In this document: piece after piece, positions 4,335-21,386 of the stretch
How the letters are laid out: each line of letters opens with the position of its first letter
How positions within the stretch are numbered: position 1 is the first letter of the stretch
Assembly (NCBI GenBank): GCA_046758445.1
Contig: JBHIAE010000050.1
Span: 1 to 21,386, forward strand
DNA: 21,386 nt
Direction of reading: 5' to 3'
Origin: Candidatus Thorarchaeota archaeon
GTDB taxonomy: Archaea; Asgardarchaeota; Thorarchaeia; Thorarchaeales; Thorarchaeaceae
Position numbers and translations under genes: made by a program
Notes under the pieces: model-generated
Told to the model about the DNA's origin: nothing
Database searches by the model: none
Seen by the model: only the letters and a program-made list of their open reading frames with translations

Positions 4335-4357
4335 CATTCAGCCTATTCTAGTGTTCT

Positions 4358-5741: not shown

Positions 5742-5857
5742 AAAGAAAGAGTGAGGGAGAGAGGACGAGCCTCCATCAAGTCTAGAAGATGAATCTACAG
5801 ATGCTCCTTTTGCCTGTAGTGCAGATACTCAGGTCCGAAGATTTGCCTGACCAAGAA
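5742..5857 (-). repeat. Cassette-boundary element: gene-3'-end copy (FLVRQIFGPEYLHYRQKEHL*) plus hairpin/pyrimidine tail
   Basis: 5857->5795 translates as FLVRQIFGPEYLHYRQKEHL-TAG. The hairpin region 5742-5772 is nearly identical to 16220-16251. Confidence 0.85.
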
Positions 5858-5877
5858 AGGCACCAAGCAGAAACTAG

Positions 5878-6336
5878 ATGAGGCAGCTACCCATACGGAA
5901 CACAGAGATGTCGACTTTGACAGAGAAACAGTGTGATGCATGTGGAAGGCCACAGGGTGGTTACTTCTGTGTCAGGTGCAAGAGAGAGAGCTGCGAGGAC
6001 TGCTGGAGTTCGGAGTGGGAGCTCTGTGTCGACTGTGCGTCCTACAAGAACGGCGTACGTTGGGACATCAAACAGAACCTAATGAACGCTGGTAGGGCCG
6101 CAGAGTTTGCATCAGCCAAGATGGAGAGTGATTGTTCTCTCTGCCCCATTCTCCGTGATCAGCTGCTATACAATCTCAAGACGGCGAAGAACCTGGCGTT
6201 CGCTGCCCGGCAGGAAGGACTGCTGGAGGAGGAGGAGAATGCGTCTAGGCTTCGACAGGAGCTTACAGAGGTGTCAATCGAGGTGCTTGTGCGGCAAGGC
6301 CTCCAAGCGAATGGAGACCTGTGGCGGCATTTGTAG
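5878..6336 (+). CDS. Hypothetical Cys-rich (zinc-finger) protein; likely start at 5908
   Basis: Five CxxC motifs (CDAC, CVRC, CEDC, CVDC, CSLC) followed by a helical C-terminus. Confidence 0.7.
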   Translation: MRQLPIRNTEMSTLTEKQCDACGRPQGGYFCVRCKRESCEDCWSSEWELCVDCASYKNGVRWDIKQNLMNAGRAAEFASAKMESDCSLCPILRDQLLYNLKTAKNLAFAARQEGLLEEEENASRLRQELTEVSIEVLVRQGLQANGDLWRHL

Positions 6337-6370
6337 AGTCCTTAACTCGTGTTTCTTCCCTTAGCACCAG

Positions 6371-6447
6371 CGAGAGGACTTGAAGCCTCCCATAGCTTGG
6401 TGACGACTCTGCATAGGCTACTGAGGTCGGTGGGACTGATACATGAT
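6371..6447 (-). repeat. Degenerate copy of the boundary element
   Basis: GAGAGGACTTGAAGCCTCCCAT resembles the hairpin at 5759 (GAGAGGACGAGCCTCCAT). It is followed by CTCTGCATAGGCTACTGAGGTCGG, which resembles the consensus CTCTTGCATGTACGGCAGATACTCAGGTCCG with gaps. Confidence 0.4.
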
Positions 6448-6457
6448 GTATCTTGGT

Positions 6458-6844
6458 TCACTGTTGAGTCGCGAATTCCTGGGGTCGCTTCAGCAATAGT
6501 CCGAGAATTGCCACATTGAGTACTAGCAGCACAACGAACATGATGACCATGGGCATGGTCCCTAGCTGAATGTAGTAACCCGGACTCGCTATGAGAGAAT
6601 AGAAAAGAGCACCCTGTGAAAAGATAAAGAGCCTTGTGCCCCATGCTCGTCTTGTGATGAGTGCCCACCCACCAATCGCAAGAAGCAGCCCCGTGGCTAT
6701 TTCAGTGAGAATATGCGCCATTATCCGATAGGGCTCAGATGCCAGCTCGGGCACCTGACCAGTCGAGAGAAGCATCATCCACAAGCCAATCATTGAGATT
6801 CCTACAAGGATGGAGTATACTGAGGCGTTCTTTGAAACTGTCAT
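6458..6844 (-). CDS. Hypothetical 4-TM membrane protein
   Basis: 128 aa ORF with four hydrophobic helices. Confidence 0.75.
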   Translation of the reverse strand: MTVSKNASVYSILVGISMIGLWMMLLSTGQVPELASEPYRIMAHILTEIATGLLLAIGGWALITRRAWGTRLFIFSQGALFYSLIASPGYYIQLGTMPMVIMFVVLLVLNVAILGLLLKRPQEFATQQ

Positions 6845-6940
6845 GTTAGTCCGTTCATAAAGTGTATCTTCTGAGGAAACAAGCAGAAACCACCAACATA
6901 AGCACGGTCCGGATTCTATGATTCACGCTGAAAAGAAAGA

Positions 6941-7584
6941 GTGGAGGGAACGCTATACGTGCGGTCCCAATCGAGGACCAGAATTGTTGACGTCACAGAG
7001 AACAGCGAATTCGAGGTATATCTTCAAAGATGCCTAGTAGGTCCACCATCCAGACGTTACAGGAAGAGGATATCATACTTGATAGAAGCGATCCCGAAGG
7101 GCTTCCGCAAGAAGATTCTCATCTTCGATAGAACAGCTATCGGGACAATCGAGTATTCACCTTCAGAAGTCTCCTATTATCCCATCGTTGGTGACAGTGT
7201 GACCGTGATGAATTGTATCTGGGTGTTAAGAAAAGCAAAGGGCCACGATTTCGGGAGTATGCTGGTACAGGACATGATAGAGAGTGAAAGAGAAGCTGAT
7301 GGCTTCGCCATCATTGCCTTGGAGGGACACTGGAGTCTATGGTTCAAGAAGGAGCAGATGGAAAGACTTGGGTTCAAATCATTGGAATCAATACCTGTGA
7401 AACACAAGACAAAGACAGGGATTGTGTCTTCAAGATTCATCTCATGTGGATGCCAATAGTGGAAGATGCCCAGCAACCGTCATGGAATCTGCAGAATCTG
7501 TTGGAAGGCATAACAGCATGCATTGCACACCCACTGTATCATCCACAGACCCACACGTCGAGGCACATATTTGAGAAACAATAA
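6941..7584 (+). pseudogene. GNAT-family (YoaP-like) acetyltransferase with a frameshift near 7410-7416
   Basis: GTIEYSP, MNCIWVLRKAKGHDFGSMLV (acetyl-CoA motif A) and ERLGFK are in the 6941-7459 frame. The plausible continuation (RDCVFKIHLMWMP...CIAHPLYHP) is in the 7339-7584 frame. Confidence 0.75.
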
Positions 7585-7777
7585 GCTTGGAAATGGATGT
7601 TCCTTTTAGTATCTCAAGGCACATAACGATGAGGAGTTGACTTCTATCATTGATCAATAGCTAATCTCTAGGCCATATTTCAAGAATAGATGAAGACGTG
7701 AAGACACGACAGATTATAGGCCAACAACAAGCATAAAGCGCAAATATGTGGGTGACGTAATGGGAGTGGGTGGTCCC

Positions 7778-8011
7778 ATGGGCACAAATGAGGTGGATAA
7801 ACGAGGCCGAGTCACAATCCCAAAGGAGTTGCGTGAGAAGGCTGACCTTAAGCCCGGAGACCGTGTGCGTATCACAGCCAGTAAGGACAGTGTGACAATA
7901 GAGAAAGTGATAGACCTAGGCACATTCATAGAAGAGCTAAGAGGATGCATCACGATCGAGGGTGATCTTGAGCCCCTACAGTTGAAAGAGATATGGAGAA
8001 CCGGGCCTTGA
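7778..8011 (+). CDS. vapB: AbrB/MazE/SpoVT-family antitoxin (VapB-type)
   Basis: VDKRGRVTIPKELREKADLKPGDRV is the AbrB swapped-hairpin signature. The gene overlaps a downstream PIN gene. Confidence 0.88.
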   Translation: MGTNEVDKRGRVTIPKELREKADLKPGDRVRITASKDSVTIEKVIDLGTFIEELRGCITIEGDLEPLQLKEIWRTGP

Positions 8012-8412
8012 TTCTGATTGACACTGACATTTGGGCATACTATTTCGATAGCACTCTCCCGGAGCACACGCGGGTCATTAAGCCGCTAGAAGCTGCTCTT
8101 CGAAAGAAACAAGCTGCCGTCAACGCCACAGTCGTCGTCGAAACTCTTCATTATCTCATTAAGCGTTTAGGTCCCCTTGCTGGAGGCGGCAAGGCAACCG
8201 TCTTTATGAAATACGGAATTCCTCTGTATGCTTTAGATACTGAAACTCTTGATCTTACAAGGCAAAAACTGTGCGAATTCACACATATAGGGATAGGGGG
8301 CCGCGATGCATCAATACTGGCTACGATGGAAAAAGAAGACATCAATAGAATAATGACCCATGACCAGGCCTTCAAACGTATAGCGAATATCCAGGTAATT
8401 GATCCTGTGTAG
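7993..8412 (+). CDS. vapC: PIN-domain (VapC) toxin; likely start TTG at 8008 overlapping the antitoxin stop
   Basis: ILIDTDIW, VVETL, RDASILA and MTHDQAF carry the conserved acidic PIN residues. Confidence 0.9.
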   Translation: MENRALILIDTDIWAYYFDSTLPEHTRVIKPLEAALRKKQAAVNATVVVETLHYLIKRLGPLAGGGKATVFMKYGIPLYALDTETLDLTRQKLCEFTHIGIGGRDASILATMEKEDINRIMTHDQAFKRIANIQVIDPV

Positions 8413-8625
8413 ATGATTAGTTGAACAGCTGGTGGGACAGATACAACGAAGCATCAGAGCAAGTAGTACTATAGTGTGGAGGAGGTGTGAACTTCCTTTT
8501 ACTTCACAGTTCACTGAGAATCTTACGCGCAGGGATGAAGGAGAGATGGCATCCATCACAAGCTAATTGCCAACACTCCAGTCAATATCCATCTCGCGTG
8601 AACTGACCAAATCTTGAGGCAAGTC

Positions 8626-8925
8626 TCAAGACCTCAGTATCTCGAAGAATATCCTCAACGCGAGATCAATAAACTCGTCATCATCGCCAAAATAGCCTGG
8701 GAAGATAATCTGATAGGTCATCAAGAGTCCGACGATTCTCTGAATCCTCTCTGAGTTTTCTGCCAGTTTGCCTATATCTACTTCTCCAGACTCAGCTGCC
8801 TTCATCATAGCTTCAGACAATATGCCCATGGCCTGCTGCAATCCATCAGTGCTCTGATACTTTGTGACGAAGTCCATATACTCGCTTGGATCATCTAGCA
8901 TCTCGCTCTGGATAGCTGAGAGAAA
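8626..8925 (-). pseudogene. 5'-truncated helical protein fragment (possibly a TetR-like C-terminal domain)
   Basis: 91 aa protein-like helical ORF. The frame stays open upstream to about 8943. It lies head-to-head with 8926+ with only 24 bp between annotated starts. Confidence 0.4.
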
Positions 8926-9459
8926 ATGCCAATCGATAGGAGCTCATCAAAAGATATCGAAGCCCTGAAGACGATTGATTGGAAGATTCTGAAGTCACTC
9001 CAATCAGATGGACGTAAGACATTAAGTGCTATTGCATTAGATGTTGGTGCATCGGTGCCAACCGTCCGAAAACGACTGACTTTAATGAGAAAACACAACC
9101 TAATCCATGAAACCATCCAGGTAAATCCCGCAGCAACAGAGCGACAGTTTGTTGTAATGTTTGCGATGAGGAGTTCCGTCATTGTTGAGATGGACTATTT
9201 TGAATTGGAGAAGATGTTTCGAGAGAAGTTTGGCGAGAACTATTGGATTAGCTTCAGGATGGCGAACAGTCCAGAACTCATGCTCACACTTGTCGTTGAC
9301 TCATCAAAGCAAGTCGTTCCCCTTCGGTCTGGACTATTGTCAATGTTCAAGGGAACTGAGGTTACTAATCAAATGATTGTCCCGGAATGGATGTATTTCC
9401 CTGATTTCAGAGATGTGATGATTGATGAACATCTATCGCAGCTGACACCTTCGGTTTAG
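8926..9459 (+). CDS. Lrp/AsnC-family winged-HTH regulator (possibly the C-terminal half of a two-HTH protein)
   Basis: IDWKILKSLQSDGRKTLSAIALDVGASVPTVRKRL is an AsnC HTH signature. There is no room for a promoter upstream. Confidence 0.8.
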   Translation: MPIDRSSSKDIEALKTIDWKILKSLQSDGRKTLSAIALDVGASVPTVRKRLTLMRKHNLIHETIQVNPAATERQFVVMFAMRSSVIVEMDYFELEKMFREKFGENYWISFRMANSPELMLTLVVDSSKQVVPLRSGLLSMFKGTEVTNQMIVPEWMYFPDFRDVMIDEHLSQLTPSV

Positions 9460-9530
9460 GGCACGTCTCTGACCTACTGTACGCTAATCTCGCACAAAGT
9501 GTCTGTGTGCAGCCCTCGTTCTGAAACCAC

Positions 9531-10400
9531 TTAGCTCGTTCTAACGGTCAAGAATCTGAAGAATTTCCTCAAGTCTTTCAGTCGAACATTGAGTGCGGGA
9601 ACCTTCTCTCTGTACTCCTGATAGCCCTCGCCGAACCTTTCTATCAGTTCGATTTCTTCTCTCCTTATTTGGACTCTGAAAAGAAGGTAGAGGATCACAC
9701 AGAGTAGAATCGAATAGACTGAGAATCTGAAGAACATCCCTGCGGTTCCTACAAGTACCCCTCCCATGTACGCGGGGTGTCGAGTGACAGAGTATATCTC
9801 ATGTTCCTGCAGCTCTGATTCTTCTGGAAAGTAGAGATACACCACAGTCATGTAGTCAATGCCAAAGGTCACAAACGAACTTCGAGCAACAAGTAACCCA
9901 AGTACCAGTAAGATTCCCGAAAGGACCACACGTATTCCAACATCAATACTCGTAGTCACTCCTAGAAAGGATAGGAGTGACCTTGAGAATAGGATTGTCA
10001 AGTCGTTGACTGGAGGGGCTGGCGGCAGTGAGCGAACTGAAGTGAAGATATGGAGTACATTTGGAAAAACAAGAGCGATTCCTATCATCCCTCTTGGAAT
10101 CATCATCTGATATGAGAGATCTCCGAACTCTGACTTCATGTAGTCTCTTCTACTCCAAATGGTTCCTATCAACCACAAAGCAATGCTTGCCAGGAGTAGA
10201 CTGCCAAGTAGAGGTAACACTGGTTCAAGCATGACAAGGGCGGAAATGTCTGGAAACACGCGTGGTAGAATATCGAGGACAATAAGGAAGATGTATCCCA
10301 GTAGTGCGATCACTAAGGCCCTCAATGGTATAATGAAAATCTTTCTTCCTGGATATGCTGGAAGCTTCTCTCGGAGCTTCTCTACTCCTTTCAGTTTCAT
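9531..10400 (-). CDS. Isoprenylcysteine carboxylmethyltransferase / PEMT-family membrane methyltransferase
   Basis: Multi-TM protein with IYSVTRHPAY and RREEIELIERFGEGYQEYREKVP motifs. Confidence 0.85.
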   Translation of the reverse strand: MKLKGVEKLREKLPAYPGRKIFIIPLRALVIALLGYIFLIVLDILPRVFPDISALVMLEPVLPLLGSLLLASIALWLIGTIWSRRDYMKSEFGDLSYQMMIPRGMIGIALVFPNVLHIFTSVRSLPPAPPVNDLTILFSRSLLSFLGVTTSIDVGIRVVLSGILLVLGLLVARSSFVTFGIDYMTVVYLYFPEESELQEHEIYSVTRHPAYMGGVLVGTAGMFFRFSVYSILLCVILYLLFRVQIRREEIELIERFGEGYQEYREKVPALNVRLKDLRKFFRFLTVRTS

Positions 10401-10455
10401 AAGGAATCTGAAACCGATTCCGACTAATCAGTCTGTTCGTGGAATAGATAGAGTG

Positions 10456-10563
10456 CGAGAGGAGATTTGCTCTCTCTTGATTTGAAGACCAAAGCGGCCT
10501 CTGTTACTATTGCCTGTACGGCAGCTAGTCGGGTCCAAACATACCTCGTGCCATGACAATCAA
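10456..10563 (-). repeat. Cassette-boundary element (LIVMARGMFGPD*LPYRQ**QR) plus hairpin
   Basis: 10563->10498 is collinear with the consensus but has three nonsense substitutions. Hairpin GAGAGGAG...CTCTCTC at 10457-10477. Confidence 0.88.
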
Positions 10564-10856
10564 TCAGCTTGTTGATGGTTTACGATCTCTATTGTCAGGA
10601 GAACTTCGTCTACCTCTCTCCGAGATAGAATCGCTCTGATGGCATCAAGCTGGTCCTGGCTTCGTATGATGACGCCTATCTTGTTCATAGGATTTCCGCT
10701 TTGCCCAATCGGGTTTATCTCAACGGCAAGATAGGCTGGTTCGTTCTTTGATCGAGGTATCTTTCTGATGAATACTCCAGGTTCATCAGTCCTTAACCGT
10801 TCAAACTTCCTCCCGTGCCTGAGCATATCTCTCAACGATTCTTCCATTCCATTCAC
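10560..10856 (-). CDS. Hypothetical protein (98 aa)
   Basis: Protein-like ORF (PGVFIRKIP, LAVEINP). Its TGA overlaps the edge of the boundary element. Confidence 0.7.
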   Translation of the reverse strand: MNGMEESLRDMLRHGRKFERLRTDEPGVFIRKIPRSKNEPAYLAVEINPIGQSGNPMNKIGVIIRSQDQLDAIRAILSRREVDEVLLTIEIVNHQQAD

Positions 10857-11026
10857 TCAGTCAGCCTGAGTCGGTGTCTTGATAAACTAAGCTACATCCT
10901 GATTTTTGCTTGGATACGTTTGCTGCGTTCGTTTCTCATGGACCAGCGGGAAATGATGAGGTCCGACAAGTCAGCAGATAGATATCATCTGGAAGGTATT
11001 GAGAATCATTCTGTGTAGGAGGATTT

Positions 11027-11413
11027 GTGGTAGTAGTGAAATTGGAACCAATGATCTATACAGTAAATCTTGAGGAATCGATTAGATTCTATCGTGATAC
11101 TCTAGGGTTTGAGATTGAGGAATACTATCCCGACAATGAGAAACCCACTTGGGTCTGCTTTCGTATTGGGAATGACCGTTTTGCTATTGGAAAGACATTC
11201 TCAGACATCCACCACAAGTTGCATCCAAGAGGAGTCGATGGTTCAGGAGTACAGTTCTATATCAGAGTCGACGACGTGGATAGGCTGTATAATGAGTTCA
11301 AGAATGAATTAGAGATCATAGATGATATCGAGAACAAGAATTGGGGTGACAGGGAATTCACATTCAAAGACCCAAATGGATACCTAATCTCCTTCTTTTC
11401 AAGGCTACAATGA
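11027..11413 (+). CDS. VOC (glyoxalase/bleomycin-resistance) family protein
   Basis: NLEESIRFYRDTLGF, FYIRVDDVD and WGDREFTFKDPNGY motifs. GGAGG lies just upstream of the GTG start. Confidence 0.92.
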   Translation: MVVVKLEPMIYTVNLEESIRFYRDTLGFEIEEYYPDNEKPTWVCFRIGNDRFAIGKTFSDIHHKLHPRGVDGSGVQFYIRVDDVDRLYNEFKNELEIIDDIENKNWGDREFTFKDPNGYLISFFSRLQ

Positions 11414-11454
11414 ATTTGCCTATCCATTCACAAGTGTGAAGGATGAAAGAACGA

Positions 11455-11558
11455 AGAGAGAAAGGAGCACAAGAAACTCCTTCTCTCCTTGAAGATTACA
11501 TCTGCTTCTCTTGCATGTACGGCAGATAGTCAGGTCCGAGCATCTCGCGTGCCATGAA
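11455..11558 (-). repeat. Cassette-boundary element (FMAREMLGPDYLPYMQEKQM*) plus hairpin
   Basis: 11555->11496 reads ATG GCA CGC GAG ATG CTC GGA CCT GAC TAT CTG CCG TAC ATG CAA GAG AAG CAG ATG TAA. Stem GAGAGAAAGGAG/CTCCTTCTCTC at about 11456-11487. Confidence 0.92.
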
Positions 11559-11582
11559 AGACTTCTCTCGTTGATATTTGAT

Positions 11583-11645
11583 TTGTAAAGACCTAATCAG
11601 AAGTGAAGTTTATATAGATTGTAAACGTACTTGTAGACAGTAAAC
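11583..11645 (+). promoter_or_regulatory. Archaeal BRE/TATA promoter of the RHH-PIN operon with repeated TTGTA(A/G)AC boxes
   Basis: Purine-rich GAAGTGAAG, then TTTATATA (11609-11616). Boxes TTGTAAAG 11583, TTGTAAAC 11619, TTGTAGAC 11631 and AGTAAAC 11639. Confidence 0.6.
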
Positions 11646-11652
11646 ATTACTG

Positions 11653-11904
11653 ATGACGGTGAATTGTATGGGAGTATCCTCTGTGAGATTGACAGAAGAT
11701 GAGAAGGCCTTCCTTGAGAGACTTGTGAAGGAAGGAAAGTATCAATCAATCAGCGAAGCTCTGAAAGCTGGAATATACGAGATGATGCAAAACGAACAAA
11801 GTGCGAGTATTCCATGGAAGTCTTTTGATGAGGTCCGTAGATACTTTTCGAAAAAGGAGAAGAAACTGAAGGGGCTTGAGGATGTCCATGAAGAAGAAAG
11901 CTAA
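11653..11904 (+). CDS. Ribbon-helix-helix (CopG/ParD-like) antitoxin; likely start at 11668
   Basis: SVRLTEDEKAFLERLVKEGKYQSISEALKAGI fits the RHH pattern. It overlaps the downstream PIN gene. Confidence 0.85.
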   Translation: MTVNCMGVSSVRLTEDEKAFLERLVKEGKYQSISEALKAGIYEMMQNEQSASIPWKSFDEVRRYFSKKEKKLKGLEDVHEEES

Positions 11905-12400
11905 AGTCTATCTTGAGGCTTCTGCACTTTGGAATCTGTTCTATGGGGAACCAGGACAAAACATCGTAGAGTTCAGTCTTGAAAAGGAAGACATTTTCTG
12001 CTCAAGCTCAATATGGAGTCATCTAGAAATACATCGCGGGATTATGAAACGAATCAATCAAGAAGAACTGACGATTGATGAAGGCAATGACTTACGCAGG
12101 TTCATTGACTTTTCCCTCCGCAGACTTGCCACAAGAAAGAGGCTGCGAGAGTATGATGTATCAAGAGATCTCGTTGAGAGGACAAAGGAACTCATATCTT
12201 CATACAATCTATATGCTTCCGACGCCCTCCACTTTTCTACAGCTATCTCTAATGATTGCTCGATAGTACTTGTTGATGATTACCATCTCTCACGGATTGG
12301 AAAGAAGTTCTCAAAGGAGATTGACATTGCGATACTGTCAACATCAACTAGCATTGACAAGTTCTCTTCAGAATTGAAGAGAGCTCTCTCGAAGAAGTAA
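11888..12400 (+). CDS. vapC: PIN-domain (VapC) toxin
   Basis: VYLEASALW, HLEI, LYASDALH and VDD motifs. It is coupled to the RHH gene. Confidence 0.85.
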   Translation: MKKKAKVYLEASALWNLFYGEPGQNIVEFSLEKEDIFCSSSIWSHLEIHRGIMKRINQEELTIDEGNDLRRFIDFSLRRLATRKRLREYDVSRDLVERTKELISSYNLYASDALHFSTAISNDCSIVLVDDYHLSRIGKKFSKEIDIAILSTSTSIDKFSSELKRALSKK

Positions 12401-12414
12401 TTCCTGTAACCCAA

Positions 12415-12444
12415 TTATCTCACATGCATTGTGAAGACAATCAG
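12415..12444 (-). pseudogene. Remnant of a DUF4258 gene 5' end
   Basis: 12444->12415 reads (L)IVFTMHVR*, versus MIIFTKHAL of 21040-. It has the same overlap with the DUF2283 stop codon. Confidence 0.65.
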
Positions 12445-12668: not shown

Positions 12669-12789
12669 TAGTCACCATCCATTATCCATCATCAGACTTA
12701 TTCTTGTCTGCCAATCTGCTTTCCCATTGGATTGATGTCTGGTAGTTATGCGTTCTGTCTTTGTGCTGAGTAGACAATAATCACTCAGG

Positions 12790-12982: not shown

Positions 12983-15900
12983 TCAACTACGTCTTCGTTT
13001 GGAATAACAGACTCCGAGAACTAGTGCCACTGCGAAAATGCTGCCAATTATGATGCTCCCGAGTAGGAAGTCTGGAATTGGGGGCGGTGTGGGCGTGGTA
13101 GTAGGAGTGGTAGGAAGTTCGACGGTGATGCTTTCCACGTTGCTCCAGTCGCTGCGTTCCATGCCTTCATCTTGAGCTATCACTGCGAAGTAGTAGGTTC
13201 CTGAGCCTAAGTCGGAGATATCTACTTCGATGTTAGTGCTGCCTGTTGTCCATGTTCTGAGTGAGTTGTCCATGGTCACGGTGTCGAACACTTCGAGAGT
13301 GTATTCGACTGCTGTGCCTTCGGGATCAGTGCTGACGCTCCACGAAACAGTGAAGATGCCATCATCGTCAGTGTCGCCGGGGTCGTTGAGCCTCGATGTG
13401 GTCGGTGGCTGATTGGCGACGGCAATGAATTCGATATTGCTCCATGGGCTGGGAACACCATCATTGTCAAAACCCCGTACTCTGAAGTAATAGGTGATTC
13501 CAATGAGATTGCTGACGAGTTGAATGGTACCCGAGGGAGTCCACTCCTGAAGAATAGTGGCAAAGCCATTGGAGTCACTCATTTGAAGATGGTAATGGTC
13601 GATTACGCCGTCGAAATCAAAGGCGGCACTCCAAGAAACGTTGAAAGTACCATCTCCTTCAGGATCTTGAGGTGCACTCAGTGTTGGGGCAAGGGGCTGT
13701 TCATTGTACCAATATGTAATGTCAACTTGATAGAGATGTGGACTGCGGTCATCATATTCAGTGGAAAAGAGGACTCGCCACCGCAAGTCGGACCCTCGAT
13801 AAGCAAACTCGTGCATAATCCTAGGCGTCACGGGTTCCCAGTGTGCTCCGCCATCAGCAGATAGTTGCCAAGTAAGGCTCGTATTGCTAGGCTCATAAGC
13901 GCTAAAGGTCAATGTAGCATTCTCGATCAGACTCGTTGTGCTATCGAATTCGAGAGATTGAGCTCCTACCTTCGTTACATTATAGGTAGCCCCAGCGCTG
14001 CGGAAGAGTCGAAAGATGAACATCGAGGTTGCATTAGATACGTAAAGGAAGTCTCCATGGACTGTTGCCATTGCTGCAAGTATTGGAGGGGTCGTATAAG
14101 AGGTGATAAGCTGGGGGTTTCGAGGATTGGTAGCATTAAGGAGATGAATCCCACCGAGTGCTTCAGTAACTATAGCATAGGGACCAAAAACCGCTATGCT
14201 TGCTGAAACATTGACACCAGGAAAATCGTAGAACGAAAACTGAGAAACAGCGAAAGGATTAGTAACATTCTGAAGAGAGATACCTCTATCGCCCTCAGCA
14301 AGGATGCAGACATCTCCATCAACAGTGACATCAGACAGCCAGGGTGATTTGGTGGTCTGATTAGTGAGGACAAGGCTACTGAGGTTTGTGGCATCATAGA
14401 GATAGAATCCATAGTCGAAGGGCGGTGATGTTTGCATACCTGTAGCATAAACGACGTGCCCTTGGACTGCAACATTGCCAAAACTAATCCCACCCGTAAC
14501 GTTGGAAATCTGTCCGCCCAAATTGGTAGGAATGGATACATTGATGATTTGGAGGCCATCATTCCCTGCAGCAAGGTAGGCCAGATCTCCAATGACGACT
14601 AAATCATTGATGGTGATCATCGGATAATAGTCGAGGAACTGAATGTCACTAGGATTGGTGACGTTGAAGGAAAGAAGCCCTTGTGTGAGTGAACCGCCAT
14701 CATCTGCAACAAAGCAATAGTGCCCCTGAATCTCAACGGAATCGTAATCAACAGGGCTCGTGTGATTGATTTGATTTAGAAGTACGGGATTAGCAGGGTC
14801 ACTAACGTTGAGAGTCAGGAGTCCATCAATGCCTGCTGCAACGTAGGCGATGTCCCCCTGCACCTCTATATCTAGAATCATATTCCCTGGAAAGGTCCCA
14901 ATCAGAGGGAGATTGGTCAACCCACCGCTACTCGCACCAATCCGATAGATCTCAAGACCTGCATCTGTCGCAATTACCAGATCGCCGTTGTAAAAGGCCA
15001 AGTCATTCACCGAGGTTGTCATCAATGAGAAATCATCAACGTATGTAGGATGCATCGGATCTGCAACATCTAGGATTACTACGGTTCCACTGTCATCACC
15101 TAGGAAGAGAGTGTGTCCCTGCGAGGCAAGACATTGAAGATTGTTGGTGTGACTATAGTACCCTTTGAGCTTGGGGTTGGCGGGATCGCTAATGTCGATT
15201 AGTTGAATCACGGACCAGGAGATGTAAAAGGCAATGTCACCATCGACATGAAGGCGATAGGAGGTGCCAAGTGCTGTGATACTGCTCACGACTGAGGGTG
15301 AAGAGGGGTTAGAGACATTGACAACATAGAAGCCGTTGTTGGCGGACAAGTAAGCCATGTCACCAATGACATTGATGTCATTCACTGTTGAAGGGAGAGA
15401 AGTGTTAGAAACAGAGAAGATATTGTAGGGGTCTTCAACATTCACTATGCGTAAGATATCACACGCTCCGTATAGAAACCGACCCTGCACAGCGATATTA
15501 GGCCTGTTACCACCGAAATTGGGTCGAGAGTCAGTGATTGTGGGTGTGGCACTAGGATTGCTGACATTGTACAATCGAAGGTCACCATAACGAGCAACTG
15601 TATACAGAATATCTCCTTCCACCTTAGCATCGTAGATATTTGACCAGCTCCAATCCCATGCAATGAATTGCGTGACTTGGTATGGATTGGTCAGATTTGC
15701 GATACGCAGAACTTGCTCAATCGGAGAGGCGCTTTGAGTAGCAATGTAAGCCTTACGACCTTGAATATCAATAGCCTGAACCCCCTCTGATACCAGATAC
15801 CGATCAAGTCGGGCAATGGCGTAATCACGCTGGCTCGTGACGGTGCCCGTTCCCCAACCACTTGCATTGGTATTACTGACATCCTGATAAGAAGTCGACA

Positions 15901-16108
15901 GGAAGTTCTCTGTCCTCCAACTTTGTCCTGAAAGAACTGCAACTTCGCTGAAACTCGTATCTACTGGTCGTGACATATGACTAGGGATTTGAAAGCATAT
16001 GAGAAGGACAATTAGAACTGCAAAACCCAGAAAACTCCTTGATCTCGACAACATCAAGCTCTCCCCTGTGGCAACGAATGTAATTGAGGAGCTTAAGGCT
16101 GTCAACAT
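12983..16108 (-). CDS. Large secreted, membrane-anchored surface protein: LVIVD-repeat beta-propellers + 2 fibronectin type III domains; likely start at 16054
   Basis: Signal-like N-terminus and many V-x-G-D-x-A-Y-(V/L)-A...G-L-x-I-x-(D/N)-V-S-(D/N)-P repeats. FN3 motifs FNVSW...YYFRVRG and FTVSW...YYFAVIA. PT-rich linker, TM helix and KRRRS tail. Confidence 0.9.
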   Translation of the reverse strand: MLTALSSSITFVATGESLMLSRSRSFLGFAVLIVLLICFQIPSHMSRPVDTSFSEVAVLSGQSWRTENFLSTSYQDVSNTNASGWGTGTVTSQRDYAIARLDRYLVSEGVQAIDIQGRKAYIATQSASPIEQVLRIANLTNPYQVTQFIAWDWSWSNIYDAKVEGDILYTVARYGDLRLYNVSNPSATPTITDSRPNFGGNRPNIAVQGRFLYGACDILRIVNVEDPYNIFSVSNTSLPSTVNDINVIGDMAYLSANNGFYVVNVSNPSSPSVVSSITALGTSYRLHVDGDIAFYISWSVIQLIDISDPANPKLKGYYSHTNNLQCLASQGHTLFLGDDSGTVVILDVADPMHPTYVDDFSLMTTSVNDLAFYNGDLVIATDAGLEIYRIGASSGGLTNLPLIGTFPGNMILDIEVQGDIAYVAAGIDGLLTLNVSDPANPVLLNQINHTSPVDYDSVEIQGHYCFVADDGGSLTQGLLSFNVTNPSDIQFLDYYPMITINDLVVIGDLAYLAAGNDGLQIINVSIPTNLGGQISNVTGGISFGNVAVQGHVVYATGMQTSPPFDYGFYLYDATNLSSLVLTNQTTKSPWLSDVTVDGDVCILAEGDRGISLQNVTNPFAVSQFSFYDFPGVNVSASIAVFGPYAIVTEALGGIHLLNATNPRNPQLITSYTTPPILAAMATVHGDFLYVSNATSMFIFRLFRSAGATYNVTKVGAQSLEFDSTTSLIENATLTFSAYEPSNTSLTWQLSADGGAHWEPVTPRIMHEFAYRGSDLRWRVLFSTEYDDRSPHLYQVDITYWYNEQPLAPTLSAPQDPEGDGTFNVSWSAAFDFDGVIDHYHLQMSDSNGFATILQEWTPSGTIQLVSNLIGITYYFRVRGFDNDGVPSPWSNIEFIAVANQPPTTSRLNDPGDTDDDGIFTVSWSVSTDPEGTAVEYTLEVFDTVTMDNSLRTWTTGSTNIEVDISDLGSGTYYFAVIAQDEGMERSDWSNVESITVELPTTPTTTPTPPPIPDFLLGSIIIGSIFAVALVLGVCYSKRRRS

Positions 16109-16219
16109 CAGATTGGTGTAACACGATGAACTTAGCTTTCGTGCACCATGCCTTATACTATTGATTCCTAAGTTTATTAATCCACATCATCGTGGCCAAT
16201 CTAATTCAAGATTAGACAC

Positions 16220-16286
16220 AAAGGAAAAGTGAGGGAGAGAGGGCGAGCCTCTCTCATTGTAGTTTAAGGATTACATCTGCCTCTCT
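16220..16286 (-). repeat. Partial boundary element (ERQM* plus well-formed hairpin/pyrimidine tail)
   Basis: TTACATCTGCCTCTCT at 16271-16286. Stem GAGAGAGG/CCTCTCTC at 16235-16255. Minus-strand tail CCTCACTTTTCCTTT. Confidence 0.8.
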
Positions 16287-16328
16287 AGATGCATAGTTGA
16301 ACTATGCCAAGAGTGATTGGCCAACCCG

Positions 16329-16370
16329 CTTAATGTGCCTACATGGCAACGAGTACACGCATAGTCAGAT
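16329..16370 (-). repeat. Degenerate boundary element
   Basis: CTTAATGTGCCTACAT resembles CTTAATGTGAGCCTACAT (12827-12844). GTACACGCATAGTCAG resembles GTACGGCAGATAGTCAG. Confidence 0.5.
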
Positions 16371-16515
16371 ACATACCCATTTCTCAAAGGAATGATTGAG
16401 GAAACGAAGATTTCTCCCTAGGAGCAACCTATGAGAATCATGCAGATGTTGGTATGTTTCTGTCCGGGAAAATGGTGTTACAAACTGGGAAATTGAGCGT
16501 CCGGTCAACGCCGTA

Positions 16516-17766
16516 TCAGTTCGGTTCATCCTGTACAGAAGCTATGTCATCACCGGACGGCGAGCTATGCAGTCCAACGAAGACCAATAGTGGAACCACG
16601 AGGAGCATCATAGAGGCCACTGTGAATGCAAAGATATAGCTGTGACCACCTAGCGCAAGAAGCAGTCCTAGGCATAAAGGTCCTGACGAGTGTCCAATAT
16701 CCATTACTGTACTGAGAAGTCCGAGGGCAGTTCCCTTCATAGAGGGGTCTACGCTCTCCGTCACCAAAGGGGCCGTAGTCGAGTCAGTGGCCGCAATCGC
16801 GATGCCAATCGGAATGATGAGCACGGTCTGCAAGAGCATGTTAGGCACTGTCGAAGCTAGAATAATCAGAAGACAGAGGGAACCCAGGCCACCGACAGTG
16901 AAGGGTACCCGACCGCTAATATCAGATGCCCTGCCTATTATCGGGCTCGTGATAAGCAAAGTGACCATGAGTAGGGTGAAGAATGGTCCTGCCACCCATT
17001 CTGGTACACCCACGACCTCTTTCCAGAAGAGGGGCATGAAAAACTCATAGGCACCGTACAAGAAGAATGTGGCAGCCTGAGCAGCACAGATGAGCAAGAT
17101 ATCACGTTTCAGCACATCCTTCAAAGAAACGTGACTCATGTTTTCACGTGCTGAGTCAGGTTCTCTTGGTGCATTCTCTGCGCCCATGGGCAGCAATAGA
17201 GTCATTACAAGAACACCCATCCCAAACAAACCACAGAGAAGGTACACGCCTCGGTACACATCTACACCATACGACTCAAACAGCGGGACGGCAAGAAGGA
17301 AACCTCCCACGAGTGGTGCGGCCATTCGACCCACTCGTGTAGAGGATGAATAAAGAGCCATCCGCTCACCCCTTCTGGCTCCGTACCATCCTGCCACAAC
17401 AGCTAGTGCCACTGGACCAAGGATTGCAGTGGCGAGTCCATGTATGAACCGCACGATGAGAAGCTGAACAGGAGTGATCACGAAGAAGTAGAGAAGAGGC
17501 ACAAAAGCGAATAGAACGGCAGCTATCCAAAGCGGTGTTCTCGGCCCCCTGCGGTCCATCAGCACTCCAACCGGTGCACTAACCAGTATGCCAGTGGCAG
17601 GAGATGCAGCTCCTATGAATCCCATCTCTTGGTCTGTGGCTCCGAGGCTAGAGGCGAAGTATGGTAGAACCGGTGATTTGGCCATTGTTGTGCTAAGAAT
17701 CGCGAGGGCACCTAGAATGCACAATAGCAGCATTTTCCGGCCTACACGAGTATGATCCTGACTCAT
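16516..17766 (-). CDS. Major facilitator superfamily transporter
   Basis: 416 aa with about 12 TM helices. Motif A GVLMDRRGPR and GRASDISGR, plus RFIHGL. Confidence 0.92.
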   Translation of the reverse strand: MSQDHTRVGRKMLLLCILGALAILSTTMAKSPVLPYFASSLGATDQEMGFIGAASPATGILVSAPVGVLMDRRGPRTPLWIAAVLFAFVPLLYFFVITPVQLLIVRFIHGLATAILGPVALAVVAGWYGARRGERMALYSSSTRVGRMAAPLVGGFLLAVPLFESYGVDVYRGVYLLCGLFGMGVLVMTLLLPMGAENAPREPDSARENMSHVSLKDVLKRDILLICAAQAATFFLYGAYEFFMPLFWKEVVGVPEWVAGPFFTLLMVTLLITSPIIGRASDISGRVPFTVGGLGSLCLLIILASTVPNMLLQTVLIIPIGIAIAATDSTTAPLVTESVDPSMKGTALGLLSTVMDIGHSSGPLCLGLLLALGGHSYIFAFTVASMMLLVVPLLVFVGLHSSPSGDDIASVQDEPN

Positions 17767-18305
17767 TTCATGGATCCGACCTGGATAGATTCTGGAAGAC
17801 GTTTCCTAAGCTCAGCAAACAGAAGTCGAAACGCCTCTTGGCGCGTCATCTGCTCTGTCTTGTTCTTGAGCTCCTGGCGAAGCCGCCTAAGGAGCAACCC
17901 AGCATAAAGGGAGTCACATACAACGAAGCCACGAGCAATCGCCTGTTGATCGTCATCACTGACGTAGGCTAGGCCACTCAGGATGAGTTCAGTACCGCGA
18001 GCATCTGGTGATTCATCGATGTCTTTCACAACATCAGCGCCATGGATAATACGCGCCATGTCATCCAGTGCGGGATCCCGAAGCTTGTAATGGTCGATTA
18101 GTACCTCGAAGGTGCATTTGCCCTCATGATGGGTGAATGGAATCTCCATATTTGGGAAGTCAAAGGGCGTACCATCTGTACTCGTCAGAGTGTGCCCAGG
18201 CCACATGACGAACTTGAAGACCGCCTTTGGATCAATGAACCGGCGAATGAGCCATGGACAAGCCACCCGGTCCACGTGCACATGATCACGAGTCACCCAT
18301 TTCAT
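17763..18305 (-). CDS. Chromate-resistance ChrB-family (C-terminal/ChrF-type) domain protein
   Basis: MKWVTRDHVHVDRVACPWLIRRFIDPKAVF, PFD, FTHHEGKCTFE and IIHGAD. ATGA overlap with the MFS gene. Confidence 0.88.
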   Translation of the reverse strand: MKWVTRDHVHVDRVACPWLIRRFIDPKAVFKFVMWPGHTLTSTDGTPFDFPNMEIPFTHHEGKCTFEVLIDHYKLRDPALDDMARIIHGADVVKDIDESPDARGTELILSGLAYVSDDDQQAIARGFVVCDSLYAGLLLRRLRQELKNKTEQMTRQEAFRLLFAELRKRLPESIQVGSMK

Positions 18306-18525
18306 GATTAACACTGCTACGGGTCACAGAAGCACTCCCGCTTAAGGTTGTCGCGGAAGAAGAATCATCTCATCGGATGCAGGGGGAATCCATTGCAAGG
18401 TTGAGGCTCTTTGATTTACCTATGAAATTGGAGAATGATTCACCAAAGCAGGTCTCATATGTCGCCCACTTCGATCGTTCTCTCATCTCACATACAGAGG
18501 TACTTGGTTTAACAGAAAACAATAT

Positions 18526-18783
18526 TCACTCTTTCACCCTCTTCAATCTGACCTTGCCTCCCTTGCTTTCAATAATGCCTTCGCCCACAAGCCCACGAAT
18601 CGCGGCAATAGCAAGACTTCGTTTTTGGTCCACTAATCCTCCTTCATCGACGAGTAACTCACGGACTATATCTTCCCGAAACCGCCACCCGCCGCCATCC
18701 AAAATCCTGAGAATCTCCTTCTTGGTGTTTTCTTTCCAGGTGACTCTCTCTTCGAATGTCAGTTTCCGTTTCCGTCCTTTCAT
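18526..18783 (-). CDS. Small basic hypothetical protein, possible winged-helix
   Basis: 85 aa. EILRIL...IVREL...AIRGLVGEGIIESKGGKVRL is a wHTH-like pattern. Confidence 0.55.
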   Translation of the reverse strand: MKGRKRKLTFEERVTWKENTKKEILRILDGGGWRFREDIVRELLVDEGGLVDQKRSLAIAAIRGLVGEGIIESKGGKVRLKRVKE

Positions 18784-18838
18784 TCTCTTTCCAGCACACT
18801 CGCTTTCGTATGAGCTCAGAACGGTTAATATGGGCTGC

Positions 18839-18906
18839 CATCTTCTCCTGCCTGTAAGGCAGATAGTCTATTACAGCTGTCTTATGTGCCTGCGTGCCAT
18901 TACAAT
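18839..18906 (-). repeat. Cassette-boundary element with replaced core (IVMAR...DYLPYRQEK-M)
   Basis: 18906->18892 = ATT GTA ATG GCA CGC. 18868->18839 = GAC TAT CTG CCT TAC AGG CAG GAG AAG ATG. The central 15 nt are replaced by 23 unrelated nt. Confidence 0.85.
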
Positions 18907-18931
18907 ACTATCCTATATTGGAGTAGGTCTA

Positions 18932-19255
18932 ATGGATTTTCCCGACGATTTGAGGTTTGCAGAGGAGTCTTTGAAACAGGCGGAGAAGGAATTCCTGGCT
19001 GGAAATGATGGAATCGCTGAAGCACTTCTAGTAAGACTGTCTACGGGAACTTTCTCTTCTGATGCCAAAACAGCACGAGAACGGATGGAGAATCTGGACG
19101 AGTTTCGTTATGTAAAATGGCATCGATGGGAGAAGAAATATGAATTCTCAGCGTCATCTGGAAGGACGAGGGATATCCTAGCATTGATACCACCACACTT
19201 CAGGCTAGTAGTCCCTACTGGTACTCAAAAAGAACAGGAATTACAACATTCGTAA
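18932..19255 (+). CDS. Hypothetical protein (true start probably ATG 18932 within ORF 18377-19255)
   Basis: GGAGTAGGT precedes the ATG. The downstream part is protein-like, while the upstream extension overlaps other features. Confidence 0.55.
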   Translation: MDFPDDLRFAEESLKQAEKEFLAGNDGIAEALLVRLSTGTFSSDAKTARERMENLDEFRYVKWHRWEKKYEFSASSGRTRDILALIPPHFRLVVPTGTQKEQELQHS

Positions 19256-19804
19256 AGGATCTAATGATTCATCGAAGTCTATTGGCACCTACTGTTGATG
19301 GCGAGCAAAAAGGATCTCCGACCTCTATAGGCAAACCATCAAACAGATGGTTGCTTGATTTTGTTGTTCTTTCCAGTCTGCGTCTCTCTTTCAAGAATCA
19401 TTGGGAGAAATTGGTACGAGATATCGTGATGAAGCGGCCCCAGACCAGCTTATACTTGTAGCTGAACGACTAGGTCTGACAATCCCGGAAACTCTTGATA
19501 TCGCCCGTAAGATCAGGGACATAGATGGCCGGGTGGTTGAGCGTGACGTGAGCGATTCCAAGAAGAATCTGACGTATTTGTGTAGAAAACCTGATTCCAG
19601 TCTGACCCCTCTAGTAGACATAAACGAGTGAAGCGAATCAACTTACAGAATCAAGTTTAGGGTGCCTATCTAAGAGTCCAGATTCCGTTCCTCAACATCA
19701 TCTCACACCCTACATCCACTGAGATTTGAGATAGTTTCGTCTGTTTGTTGAATTCATAGTTGAGACATGTTGAAAGGCAGTGGCCAGTTTGACTAGGTGT
19801 TAAG

Positions 19805-20020
19805 ATGGTCGTTACATCAAGTGAGAAAACAAGAAACGTTGGTGATGGCTTGGCCAAAAACAAGTTCTCCAGAGACCTGGATAGACTATTGAATAAGCTT
19901 CAACCAACATCAGACGCAGAAACTGCGGATCAACTTACAAGAATCCGTTATCGCTTGGTTGATTTGAACCGAAAGCGACTTGTCAAGATCAACCACAGTG
20001 TGATGCAGGTGCTCTGTGCA
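19805..20020 (+). pseudogene. 3'-truncated fragment of a hypothetical archaeal protein
   Basis: KFSRDLDRLLNKL...RLVKINHSVMQVLCA, after which it runs into the antisense of the AsnC fragment. Confidence 0.5.
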
Positions 20021-20176
20021 GAATTCAATGACCCCTGAATCTAACAGCTTCTGAACCCGTTTCTTAATCGCATTCATCGAAACATTATACTTCTTAGCTA
20101 CTGCTTGGTAAGACTGTCTACAATTCTGAAGTAGATCCATTATAATCATCTTATCAAGCTGGTCCAAATGACTCAC
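20021..20176 (-). pseudogene. N-terminal AsnC/Lrp HTH fragment, 3'-truncated
   Basis: LDQLDKMIIMDLLQNCRQSYQAVAKKYNVSMNAIKKRVQKLLDSGVIEF. Beyond about 20020 the ORF is the antisense of 19805+. Confidence 0.7.
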
Positions 20177-20243
20177 CGGTTCTGTTAGTGAATAGATGCG
20201 GGGTGCTATGTTGTATAGTTATGCAATTGAATGTATTCCAAGA

Positions 20244-20621
20244 CTAAAACATCCCATTCTCGTTCGGCGAGTCTTCCAGAATGGCTTGATTGATGTCCCA
20301 CATCTCTACGATGCGTGAGTCTACAAATCTGGAAATATGCATGAGTGCAAATCCAGGATGGTCTGGATTTTGTTTGACATGTGAATATGTTGTGACAAGG
20401 TCCCCATCTTCCAGAAACATCTTTACCTCTACCTGCTTTTCAGGATTCGCTCTGGCATCCTCCTCTATAGCCAATATCAATGACTCACGGTCACCTTTGA
20501 AATGCTGGTTGTGATGTATCAAATCTCTACTCGTGTGCTCATCAAACCATCTTCGAAACTCTCTAGATTCTACAAGATCGAAGAATGACAACGCAATCTC
20601 ACGGTTTGAGCCTTTGTTCAT
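20244..20621 (-). CDS. SnoaL-like / NTF2-family (ester cyclase-like) protein
   Basis: HHNQHFKGDRESL, LEDGDLVTTYSHV and RFVDSRIVEMWD. GAGGAG lies upstream of the ATG at 20621. Confidence 0.85.
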   Translation of the reverse strand: MNKGSNREIALSFFDLVESREFRRWFDEHTSRDLIHHNQHFKGDRESLILAIEEDARANPEKQVEVKMFLEDGDLVTTYSHVKQNPDHPGFALMHISRFVDSRIVEMWDINQAILEDSPNENGMF

Positions 20622-20685
20622 TTGAACTCCTCTTCCTGTGCTGCGTAGAGAAAACACTACTTACTCAAAAGGATTGGGAAATAAA

Positions 20686-20800
20686 GGAGGAGGAAAGGGG
20701 TGCAATATGCACACTCATTCCTACTGGTTGACTACATCTGTTTCTCTTTCCTGTATGGCAGATACTCGGGTCCGAAGATTTCTCGCGCTATGACAATCAA
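20686..20800 (-). repeat. Cassette-boundary element (LIVIAREIFGPEYLPYRKEKQM*) plus hairpin
   Basis: 20800->20732 is a 23-codon uninterrupted copy ending in TAG. Stem GTGCA/TGCAC around 20700-20712, with a minus-strand pyrimidine tail. Confidence 0.92.
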
Positions 20801-20803
20801 GTT

Positions 20804-21040
20804 CTAGGTTTTTCTGTACTTTTCTTTGCTTGTCCTATAAGCTGTGATTATGATGAAGTTTCCATCTCGTTCCACGAAGAAAACTCTCAAAATCTTCCCA
20901 TTACTATCCATCTGGGCAATCGAATGTCCAAGACTATCTGTCATCCTTTCTTTTGATGTCGACAATAGTTGAATGACTTCATCTCTCGTGATAGCACGTT
21001 GCTTCATTCTCTCCAACGCGTGCTTTGTGAAGATTATCAA
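20804..21040 (-). CDS. DUF4258 family protein (putative RelE/BrnT-like toxin)
   Basis: IIFTKHALERMKQRAI and LRVFF...IIITAY. The start overlaps the DUF2283 stop. Confidence 0.88.
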   Translation of the reverse strand: MIIFTKHALERMKQRAITRDEVIQLLSTSKERMTDSLGHSIAQMDSNGKILRVFFVERDGNFIIITAYRTSKEKYRKT

Positions 21041-21267
21041 ACTGTGGCGACCTCTGCAACCAGTTCCTCATCACGAAGCTTCACCAAGCGATTTAGATCA
21101 AGGTTCTTCTTTGAAAATGCAAGTACTTCGATGCCGCAGATCTCCCCCTTGGAATCATAGTCGATGACCACTCCCTCTCCAATCTCGACACTCTCTGCAA
21201 CATCTTCTCCTTTAAATCTGAAATACACGGAATCTGCAACTTTGTCATATTCCACTTGCATTGCCAT
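21037..21267 (-). CDS. DUF2283 family protein (putative antitoxin)
   Basis: YDKVADSVYFRF...VVIDYDSKGEICGIEVL. Confidence 0.9.
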   Translation of the reverse strand: MAMQVEYDKVADSVYFRFKGEDVAESVEIGEGVVIDYDSKGEICGIEVLAFSKKNLDLNRLVKLRDEELVAEVATV

Positions 21268-21330
21268 TCACCATTCATTATCCATCATCAGATTTATTCC
21301 TGTTTGCTAATCTGCTTTGCTATTGAAAAA

Positions 21331-21386
21331 CTACATATCTTTCTCTTATTGCTAGCGTGGATATGAAACCACATCTGCTTCTCTTG
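21331..21386 (-). repeat. Two adjacent partial boundary elements; the second runs off the window edge
   Basis: 21331-21345 reads EKDM* on minus. 21371-21386 ACATCTGCTTCTCTTG is 16/16 identical to 11498-11513 (QEKQM, followed by TGG rather than a stop). Confidence 0.8.

Follow-up and report, generated by a model that had tools for sequence, protein, structure and literature searches.

Duplicated 3′ ends of an acyl-CoA dehydrogenase gene delimit a cassette array in a Thorarchaeota genome

The DNA discussed here ("the window") is the entire contig JBHIAE010000050.1 (C50; 21,386 nucleotides) of a Candidatus Thorarchaeota archaeon (assembly GCA_046758445.1; G000), a genome of 3.25 Mb in 113 contigs that is 92.7% complete. 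It carries toxin–antitoxin pairs, a transporter, and other accessory genes, alone or in small groups, in blocks that are separated by copies of a direct repeat in one orientation. An earlier note on this DNA, made from the sequence alone, described the region as small non-integron cassettes stacked at one site by a recombinase acting in trans, with a repeat of ~65 bp between them. This repeat turns out to be a duplicate of the 3′ end of an acyl-CoA dehydrogenase (ACAD) gene, a fact that the earlier reading missed and that names the "one site".

Copies of the repeat in the window

A profile built from the six main repeat copies of the window was run on the window and on the whole genome. In the window it gave exactly six matches, all in one orientation (E 1e-12 to 1e-20), which recovers every main copy of the earlier note and adds nothing else that is strong (Table 1). 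The rest of the genome holds one copy on contig C86 and one on contig C51, with nothing further below E=0.5. The genome thus has eight copies on three contigs, with uniform orientation within each contig, and a dispersed repeat of the miniature inverted-repeat transposable element (MITE) or repetitive extragenic palindrome (REP) type, found genome-wide and in both orientations, was rejected on this basis. A broader nhmmer profile, made from 59 repeat copies from many genomes, also detects two of the three partial copies proposed earlier, those at 16271 and 21371, while the third, at 21331, corresponds to a weak match only (21323-21347, E 2). Degenerate copies had also been proposed at about 5565, at 6371-6447 and at 16329; these were not recovered with filters off and E<=10. 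The partial copy near 16271 divides a 5.9-kb block into two cassettes. The one near 21371 is truncated by the contig end, and the array therefore continues past the window. Searches of the window for tRNA genes and Rfam families gave no match.

Identity and anatomy of the repeat unit

Read on the minus strand, the copies translate as M-A-R-E-I-F-G-P-D/E-Y-L-P-Y-R-Q-E-K-Q-M-stop. The same sequence forms the C-terminus of an intact ACAD gene on C51 (5805-4561, minus strand), which encodes 414 aa and matches Pfam Acyl-CoA_dh_N/M/1. The copies differ from one another mostly in third codon positions, and arginine is encoded by AGG in some copies and by CGT in others. In relatives, some copies are preceded by ...Y-T-V-G-A-E-G-G-S-H-V-Q-K-I-V. 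A small-peptide gene, that is, a repeated 19-aa open reading frame (ORF), was considered and dropped, since intact ACAD ends with the same sequence. The relatives of this ACAD at 80-96% identity are Thorarchaeota metagenome-assembled genomes (MAGs); the next ones, at ~50%, belong to Thermoplasmatota, Anaerolineae and Scalindua. The repeat is thus an attachment-site duplication, such as integration at the ends of genes produces.

At ~100-110 bp, the unit exceeds the ~65 bp first proposed. It consists of the last ~22 ACAD codons and the stop codon (the "tail"), a spacer of ~15 nt (often TTTCAA...), a hairpin, and a T-rich run. In the alignment of 59 copies the left edge of the unit is sharp, at ATCGTCATGG, ~22 codons before the stop. 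The hairpin has one purine-rich and one pyrimidine-rich arm; its sequence varies while its pairing is kept, with compensatory changes in 5/5 predicted pairs. ACAD genes of lineages that have no array carry a similar hairpin after the stop codon, and for this reason the hairpin is probably the terminator of the ACAD gene.

More than 300 tail copies, from ~45 genomes and 37 metagenome contigs, were examined. In the displaced tails, entropy by codon position is 13.0/9.6/25.1, which is a strong third-position bias. These tails are also decaying, with stop defects in 17/62 and indels in 10/92. A codon-patterned yet decaying sequence fits copies that formerly were the working end of ACAD. An inverted repeat inside the tail (ACTATCTGC / GCAGATGTAGT, 16-nt spacer) was considered as a binding site and rejected, as it shows no covariation in variant tails.

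Anchoring at the ACAD locus and spread among relatives

The repeat was found in 16/41 relatives sampled and in 56/86 Thorarchaeaceae genomes, and it is concentrated in certain genera (25/28, 12/16 and 6/7, as against 0/5 and 0/3 in others). The 37 metagenome contigs hold ~110 further copies. Within every contig, from genomes and metagenomes, the copies are co-oriented. Moreover, when ACAD lies on the same contig as an array it is always at the upstream end, and its 3′ end is the first copy (as in G005, G018, G020, G002 and numerous further MAGs); ACAD terminates in the repeat on C51 and in over 20 relatives. The locus is polar: upstream of ACAD the genes are syntenic across Thorarchaeota, and downstream of its stop codon nothing is common. 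The upstream neighbours are housekeeping genes (a methyltransferase, a CAAX protease, LeuB/LeuCD-like proteins, and an epimerase), with no recombinase among them. Many contigs terminate just 3′ of ACAD, as would be expected of a region that is rich in repeats or variable in the population.

Neighbouring copies usually lie 0.35-3 kb apart, in most cases with a single gene between them on one strand or the other, and the arrays reach at least nine units. In addition to the types seen in the window, the cargo in arrays of relatives and elsewhere in G000 includes TPR, beta-propeller and NosD proteins, S41 and M32 peptidases, a BBE-type oxidase, and a HerA/mad8-like defence ATPase. A HerA-like and a 737-aa protein encoded beside ACAD on C51 were considered as a mobility module; they look like defence cargo (mad8/HerA match), and this candidate was set aside.

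End overlaps that would join the window to C51 or C86 were tried and none was found. The sole join was that of C86, which has one partial tail copy, to the start of the 102-kb contig C6, through an overlap of 55 bases. It follows from this overlap that the C86 tail copy borders the core genome, apart from the distal end of the window. This suggests that the tails of G000 occupy more than one locus or that the array has been rearranged.

Reassortment of cassettes at the repeat units

Pairs of copies from different genomes mostly share a single flank: 13 pairs share the downstream flank only (at least 85%), ~20 non-ACAD pairs share the upstream flank only, and just 3 share both, all of them representing one two-cassette block that includes window positions 18512-19631 (85% identity, two other genomes). 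It follows that the cassettes are reassorted, with breakpoints within the repeat units. Consistent with this, the similarity between genomes stops at the unit, the repeat is where indels between genomes end, and gene order across the region is not conserved. Of the three observations that would have refuted the earlier reading, namely a genome-wide repeat, indels that end elsewhere and a conserved gene order, none was made. For example, in another genus (G018:C51) the window gene at 6941-7459 stands alone as a cassette with a tail on each side.

The partial copies give a further view of the breakpoints, which cluster around GGACCTGACTATCTGCC. Copies that retain only the 5′ part mostly stop right after TATCTGC, and those that retain only the 3′ part start at GGACCTGAC or CAAGAGAA. 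Where two copies have a flank in common, their tails have diverged far more than that flank. Linkage to the upstream flank is ~0.8 just outside the unit and falls to ~0.5-0.2 across it, while linkage to the downstream flank decreases the other way; this analysis is small, with 7-8 independent upstream-only and 1-5 downstream-only pairs (7 and 1 in a stricter re-analysis). Attempts to map a single fixed crossover point gave junctions scattered over the tail, a pattern that does not fit such a point unless gene conversion is added. Much of the shuffling is therefore probably the work of homologous recombination between tails.

Tails are slightly more alike within the same genome than across different genomes (0.79 vs 0.74; 0/2000 permutations). 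The first displaced tail is at most 0.93 identical to the gene's own tail and never identical to it, and divergence shows no gradient with distance from the gene. Both features speak against a model in which every insertion duplicates the resident target.

"Empty cassettes" were also seen, in which two tail units stand back to back with no gene between them (L154:2173-2424 and L049:14128-14363). Such back-to-back units would not be expected from simple excision between two units.

Search for a recombinase

The earlier note stated that no block encodes a recombinase, and the Pfam search agrees: the window ORFs gave no match to recombinase families. In the cassettes examined, here and in relatives, no tyrosine or serine recombinase, Y1 transposase, or Cas1 was found. 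The tyrosine recombinase family PF00589 has only two matches in G000, both on contigs other than the window, and none adjoins ACAD on C51 or in relatives. It gave no match in G005, G020, G015, G012 and G002 (array-bearing, 81-93% complete), that is, in 5/10 array-bearing genomes examined. PF00239 (resolvase), PF01797 (Y1 transposase) and PF01867 (Cas1) are absent from G000, G005 and G020, and Cas1 is also absent from G018. It was noted in passing that no XerA-type recombinase was detected in G002, G005, G012, G015 and G020, which is unusual for archaea unless it reflects an assembly gap.

A lineage-specific profile, built from 13 Thorarchaeota integrases and run on six-frame translations, matched a single gene across ~1 Mb of array loci and gave no match in 181 kb of metagenome arrays. 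The matched gene encodes a 420-aa tyrosine recombinase in G018 and was restored by joining the ends of C29 (L148) and C28 (L028) through 116 identical bases. It lies 2.4 kb upstream of a partial ACAD tail, with a MatE transporter between the two, and a search for its left att partner found none that matches. Beside this integrase, amid cassette-like cargo, a 286-aa protein with Arrestin_N and Arrestin_C domains is encoded (L148:17377-18237, G018:C29). A viral or plasmid source of the unit was considered and dropped: when IMG/VR was scanned for the exact pattern, no viral contig with the unit turned up.

Models for the formation of the array

We regard as about evenly balanced, between right and wrong, the proposal that the window is the distal part of a cassette array anchored at the ACAD 3′ end, into which units came by Campbell-type insertion with the help of an enzyme acting in trans, followed by reshuffling through homologous recombination. 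According to this proposal, small circular, non-autonomous modules, each with one unit, would recombine with the unit at the intact ACAD end. ACAD would retain a functional tail and terminator, and the older unit and the cassettes behind it would be displaced downstream. The enzyme that creates the units would be encoded outside the array. Once several co-oriented units are in place, host homologous recombination and gene conversion may delete, swap, and reorder cassettes, both within one genome and with DNA of related cells. The data show the identity of the repeat, its anchoring and polarity, the reshuffling at the repeats, and the lack of known recombinases, whereas the circular intermediates, the trans-acting enzyme, and the share of homologous recombination are inferred. 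In the earlier note, the part on non-integron cassettes stacked at one site stands; the trans-acting recombinase is still hypothetical, as no candidate was found and the scatter of junctions makes host homologous recombination a weighty alternative for most of the reshuffling.

Several observations weigh against insertion by a trans-acting enzyme at the ACAD end. The tail is weakly linked to either neighbouring cassette, with a gradual decay across it, and such scattered junctions misfit one fixed crossover point unless gene conversion is added. The model gives no account of the way in which a new gene gains its tail unit. Tail copies in G004 and G018 are also found at loci apart from ACAD, and no pair of close strains with an empty and a filled locus was observed; the ACAD loci without displaced tails are those of other lineages. 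Moreover, the MAGs searched are 60-99% complete and mobile elements tend to escape binning, which limits the weight of the missing integrase.

The main rival, which we consider rather unlikely though the strongest of the alternatives, does without a dedicated enzyme. After a rare founding duplication, the unit would serve as portable homology and host homologous recombination (RadA) would do everything: it would loop out cassettes between direct repeats, reinsert the circles by a single crossover, and swap cassettes with the DNA of relatives. In its favour, the places where flank-linked sequence gives way to unlinked sequence are spread over the whole unit instead of lying at one nucleotide, several array-rich genomes have no known recombinase family, and the distribution is restricted to genera with a similar ACAD tail. 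However, it does not explain how new genes come to be flanked by units, why the left unit edge is identical in all copies, or why the breaks of partial copies cluster near one 17-nt stretch; in addition, copies that are ~75-90% identical over ~70-100 nt are short and divergent for efficient homologous recombination. A different reading, which we hold to be improbable, sees in the array the decayed residue of integrase-bearing integrative elements (plasmids, viruses or islands) that inserted in tandem at the ACAD 3′ end and lost their integrases by deletion. Such elements classically show a duplicated target 3′ end, polarity, and a break of synteny where the gene ends; the intact 420-aa recombinase of G018 lies close to a partial tail, and stacking of this kind, with remnants, is seen in tycheposon islands (10.1101/2020.12.28.424599). 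Yet more than 300 copies at 0.35-3 kb spacing are tightly packed around single, intact cargo genes, which random decay would not be expected to leave; the lineage-specific profile found no integrase fragment in six-frame translations, and the G018 integrase has no matching left att site.

To two further models we assign little weight. A long target-site duplication at each insertion, by staggered cuts flanking the tail and fill-in as in CRISPR repeat duplication or casposon insertion, would account for tails that are linked to neither neighbouring cassette. We judge it very improbable: the first displaced tail differs from the gene's tail, as discussed above, no gradient of divergence with distance from the gene is seen, adjacent copies show synonymous two-step differences (AGG vs CGT), and Cas1 is absent from G000, G005, G018 and G020. 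Least credible of all is a true integron array, that is, an integrase-less cluster of atypical attC sites similar to the integrons of Asgard archaea. Its single-gene cassettes and typical integron cargo fit, and one survey reports an enrichment of integrons in Asgardarchaeota, where most of them are clusters without an integrase (PMC9668308). The unit, however, is gene-derived and codon-periodic. The 59-copy alignment contains neither RYYYAAC/GTTRRRY boxes, in agreement with the earlier note's remark that attC ends are lacking, nor an R''-L''/L'-R' imperfect palindrome; cassette genes lie on both strands and there is no IntI. The same survey lists just two Thorarchaeia genomes with two attC each, and its supplements do not contain the core motif (PMC9668308). 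The reading that we favour is an integrase-free, integron-like array with the tail and terminator of a housekeeping gene as its attachment unit, most simply formed by Campbell-type insertion at the ACAD end and reshuffled by recombination between the units; host homologous recombination alone may account for the same data.

Comparison with known systems

Tandem accretion at gene 3′ ends offers an instructive parallel. Tandem islands at tRNA and tmRNA genes and integrase-less cis-mobilisable elements (CIMEs) are known; ICESt1 and ICESt3 reportedly accrete in tandem with CIMEs at the fda 3′ end of Streptococcus thermophilus. The ACAD arrays resemble such loci in that the direct repeats are the 3′ end of the target, the intact gene stands at one end, newer units would adjoin the gene, and some units carry att sites and no integrase. 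Repeats made of a gene 3′ end and one-sided synteny, both hallmarks of tandem accretion, were found here, whereas a cognate integrase in the units was not. In contrast to those loci, essentially all units here are without an integrase, no helper element is seen, the units are mostly single-gene and 0.35-3 kb long, arrays reach nine or more of them, and the system is conserved across an archaeal family.

Xer-dependent modules comprise integrative mobile elements exploiting Xer recombination (IMEX), which use dif, and the pdif modules of Acinetobacter plasmids. As in the Xer systems, where a host enzyme moves the modules, the ACAD arrays contain integrase-less modules between short recombination sites. 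A dif-like site has 28 bp, with two inverted 11-bp arms around a 6-8 bp spacer. Unlike the Xer systems, the unit has no 11-6-11 dif-like site (the sole inverted repeat has a 16-nt spacer and no covariation), and half of the array-bearing genomes examined (5/10) lack a tyrosine recombinase match. The arrays also differ from casposon or CRISPR-like insertion, as there is no Cas1 (4 genomes) and the flanking target copies are non-identical.

The tycheposons of Prochlorococcus encode tyrosine recombinases and replication modules, target tRNA genes, and leave fragmented integrases in islands (10.1101/2020.12.28.424599). Repeated integration at one site pushes older units inward in those islands, and partial target copies lie between units, as in the arrays described here (10.1101/2020.12.28.424599). 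The cargo is niche-adaptive and the host otherwise poor in mobile elements in that case, too (10.1101/2020.12.28.424599). In contrast, the ACAD arrays show no recombinase and no integrase fragments, the window has no tRNA gene, and the target is protein-coding. As in integrons, there are arrays of mostly single-gene, recombinase-less cassettes with unrelated cargo and one unit per cassette (PMC9668308). Integron cassettes mostly hold single, co-oriented, promoterless ORFs; here single ORFs dominate and lie on both strands. Moreover, there is no adjacent IntI, the unit is a gene tail instead of an attC, and the primary site lies where a housekeeping gene ends.

Wider meaning

A full-text search of the literature found no paper that describes such arrays in Thorarchaeota, and we would regard the ACAD locus as a single anchor within a broader Thorarchaeota phenomenon that has yet to be described. 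Tentatively, and with slightly less than an even balance in its favour, we propose that Thorarchaeota possess a general gene-capture system that fills the role of integrons, uses 3′ ends of housekeeping genes as attachment units, relies on a new recombinase or on homologous recombination alone, and would provide a main route for accessory genes. The closest relatives of eukaryotes known to date are the Asgard archaea, whose gene exchange is poorly understood. The array represents a regular, family-wide means to store and swap single accessory genes without a recognisable integrase, and the stored genes include defence systems, toxin–antitoxin pairs, transporters, peptidases, and surface proteins. 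If a new enzyme is involved, it would constitute a novel site-specific recombination system with a natural target of ~100 bp. If host recombination alone is responsible, the array would be a clean natural case of integron-like pangenome dynamics without a dedicated machine. The repeats also explain why Thorarchaeota assemblies break behind ACAD, and they provide a marker for cassette turnover in metagenomes.

Other repeats in the same genome were noted separately. G000 C14:42454-65097 and C2:124001-138018 carry a different co-oriented repeat of ~100 nt (GGGTGCTCAACAGTG ... GGGCAAGTGCCAAC), which occurs five or more times on C14 and three times, reverse-complemented, on C2; this is apparently another cassette array with a different unit. 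Two more families, each with three co-oriented intergenic repeats, lie on C65 (6341, 12785, 14434) and C29 (17871, 19244, 19680). The C65 repeats have short inverted arms, AGTTCTA ... TAGAACT.

Cassettes and flank of the window

The coordinates of the tail copies, the cassettes, and the flank are collected in Table 1. Among the cargo types named in the earlier note, toxin–antitoxin pairs, VOC, and SnoaL-like proteins are borne out by Pfam, whereas no GNAT protein was found among the window ORFs scanned.

Table 1. Tail copies, cassettes, and flank of the window with their coordinates
Feature	Position	Strand	Evidence or remark
Flank past the last tail copy: GAF-PAS histidine kinase, molybdopterin oxidoreductase, tandem small paralogues	1..5773		
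Tail copy, most distal and most divergent; array end on C50	5795..5861 (profile 5797-5869)	-	nhmmer E 3e-17
Large block: PEMT/ICMT methyltransferase, AsnC-type HTH, PIN toxin pair, several family-less ORFs	5862..10472		Pfam
Tail copy, decayed, in-frame stops	10495..10561 (profile 10496-10567)	-	nhmmer E 1e-20
Cassette: glyoxalase/VOC (11027-11413 +), 98-aa ORF (10560-10856 -)	10568..11481		Pfam
Tail copy, frame intact (MAREMLGPDYLPYMQEKQM-stop)	11496..11562 (profile 11498-11568)	-	nhmmer E 1e-24; hairpin ~11440-11490
Cassette: RHH antitoxin (11653-11904 +), PIN toxin (11876-12400 +), DUF2283 (12441-12668 -)	11574..12812		Pfam
Tail copy, 15-nt internal deletion	12839..12890 (profile 12834-12898)	-	perfect hairpin 12804-12822
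Cassette: 1041-aa LVIVD-repeat protein (12983-16108)	12900..16244	-	Pfam
Partial copy: last ~16 nt of the tail, spacer, hairpin (16235-16255)	16245..16286	-	broader profile E 0.02
Cassette: ChrB_C (17763-18314), MFS transporter (16516-17766)	16287..18841	-	Pfam
Tail copy, degenerate: 8-nt insertion, stops	18842..18922 (profile 18836-18915)	-	
Cassette(s): SnoaL-like (20244-20657), AsnC-type HTH (19910-20176), small ORFs	18923..20713	-	Pfam
Spacer and hairpin of the 20732 copy	about 20690-20731		
Tail copy	20732..20798 (profile 20734-20806)	-	nhmmer E 2e-23; reads I-V-I-A-R-E-I-F-G-P-E-Y-L-P-Y-R-K-E-K-Q-M-stop
Cassette: DUF2283 (21037-21267) and DUF4258 (20804-21040) pair	20808..21358	-	Pfam
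Partial tail copy at contig end	21359..21386	-	broader profile E 8e-5

The profile search gave no strong internal tail copy in the large distal block. The flank beyond the last tail copy lies outside the array and is not adjacent to arrays in the relatives examined. Relatives of the 1041-aa LVIVD protein are cassettes in four other genomes.

A 292-aa ORF at 18377-19255 (+), with no Pfam family, spans the degenerate tail copy at 18842-18922. Within it, shorter frames are conserved on both strands in two relatives, and the 292-aa frame is probably not a real gene. A 300-nt DUF2283 segment is present twice in the array (12425-12724 and 21021-21320, 82% identity), with the DUF4258 partner at one of the two places only. 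In the flank, positions 4358-5324 contain three overlapping or tandem paralogous ORFs (123, 111 and 131 aa) with no Pfam family; a Thermoplasmatales contig has a similar tandem repeat, there five-fold (L088:4452-5258).

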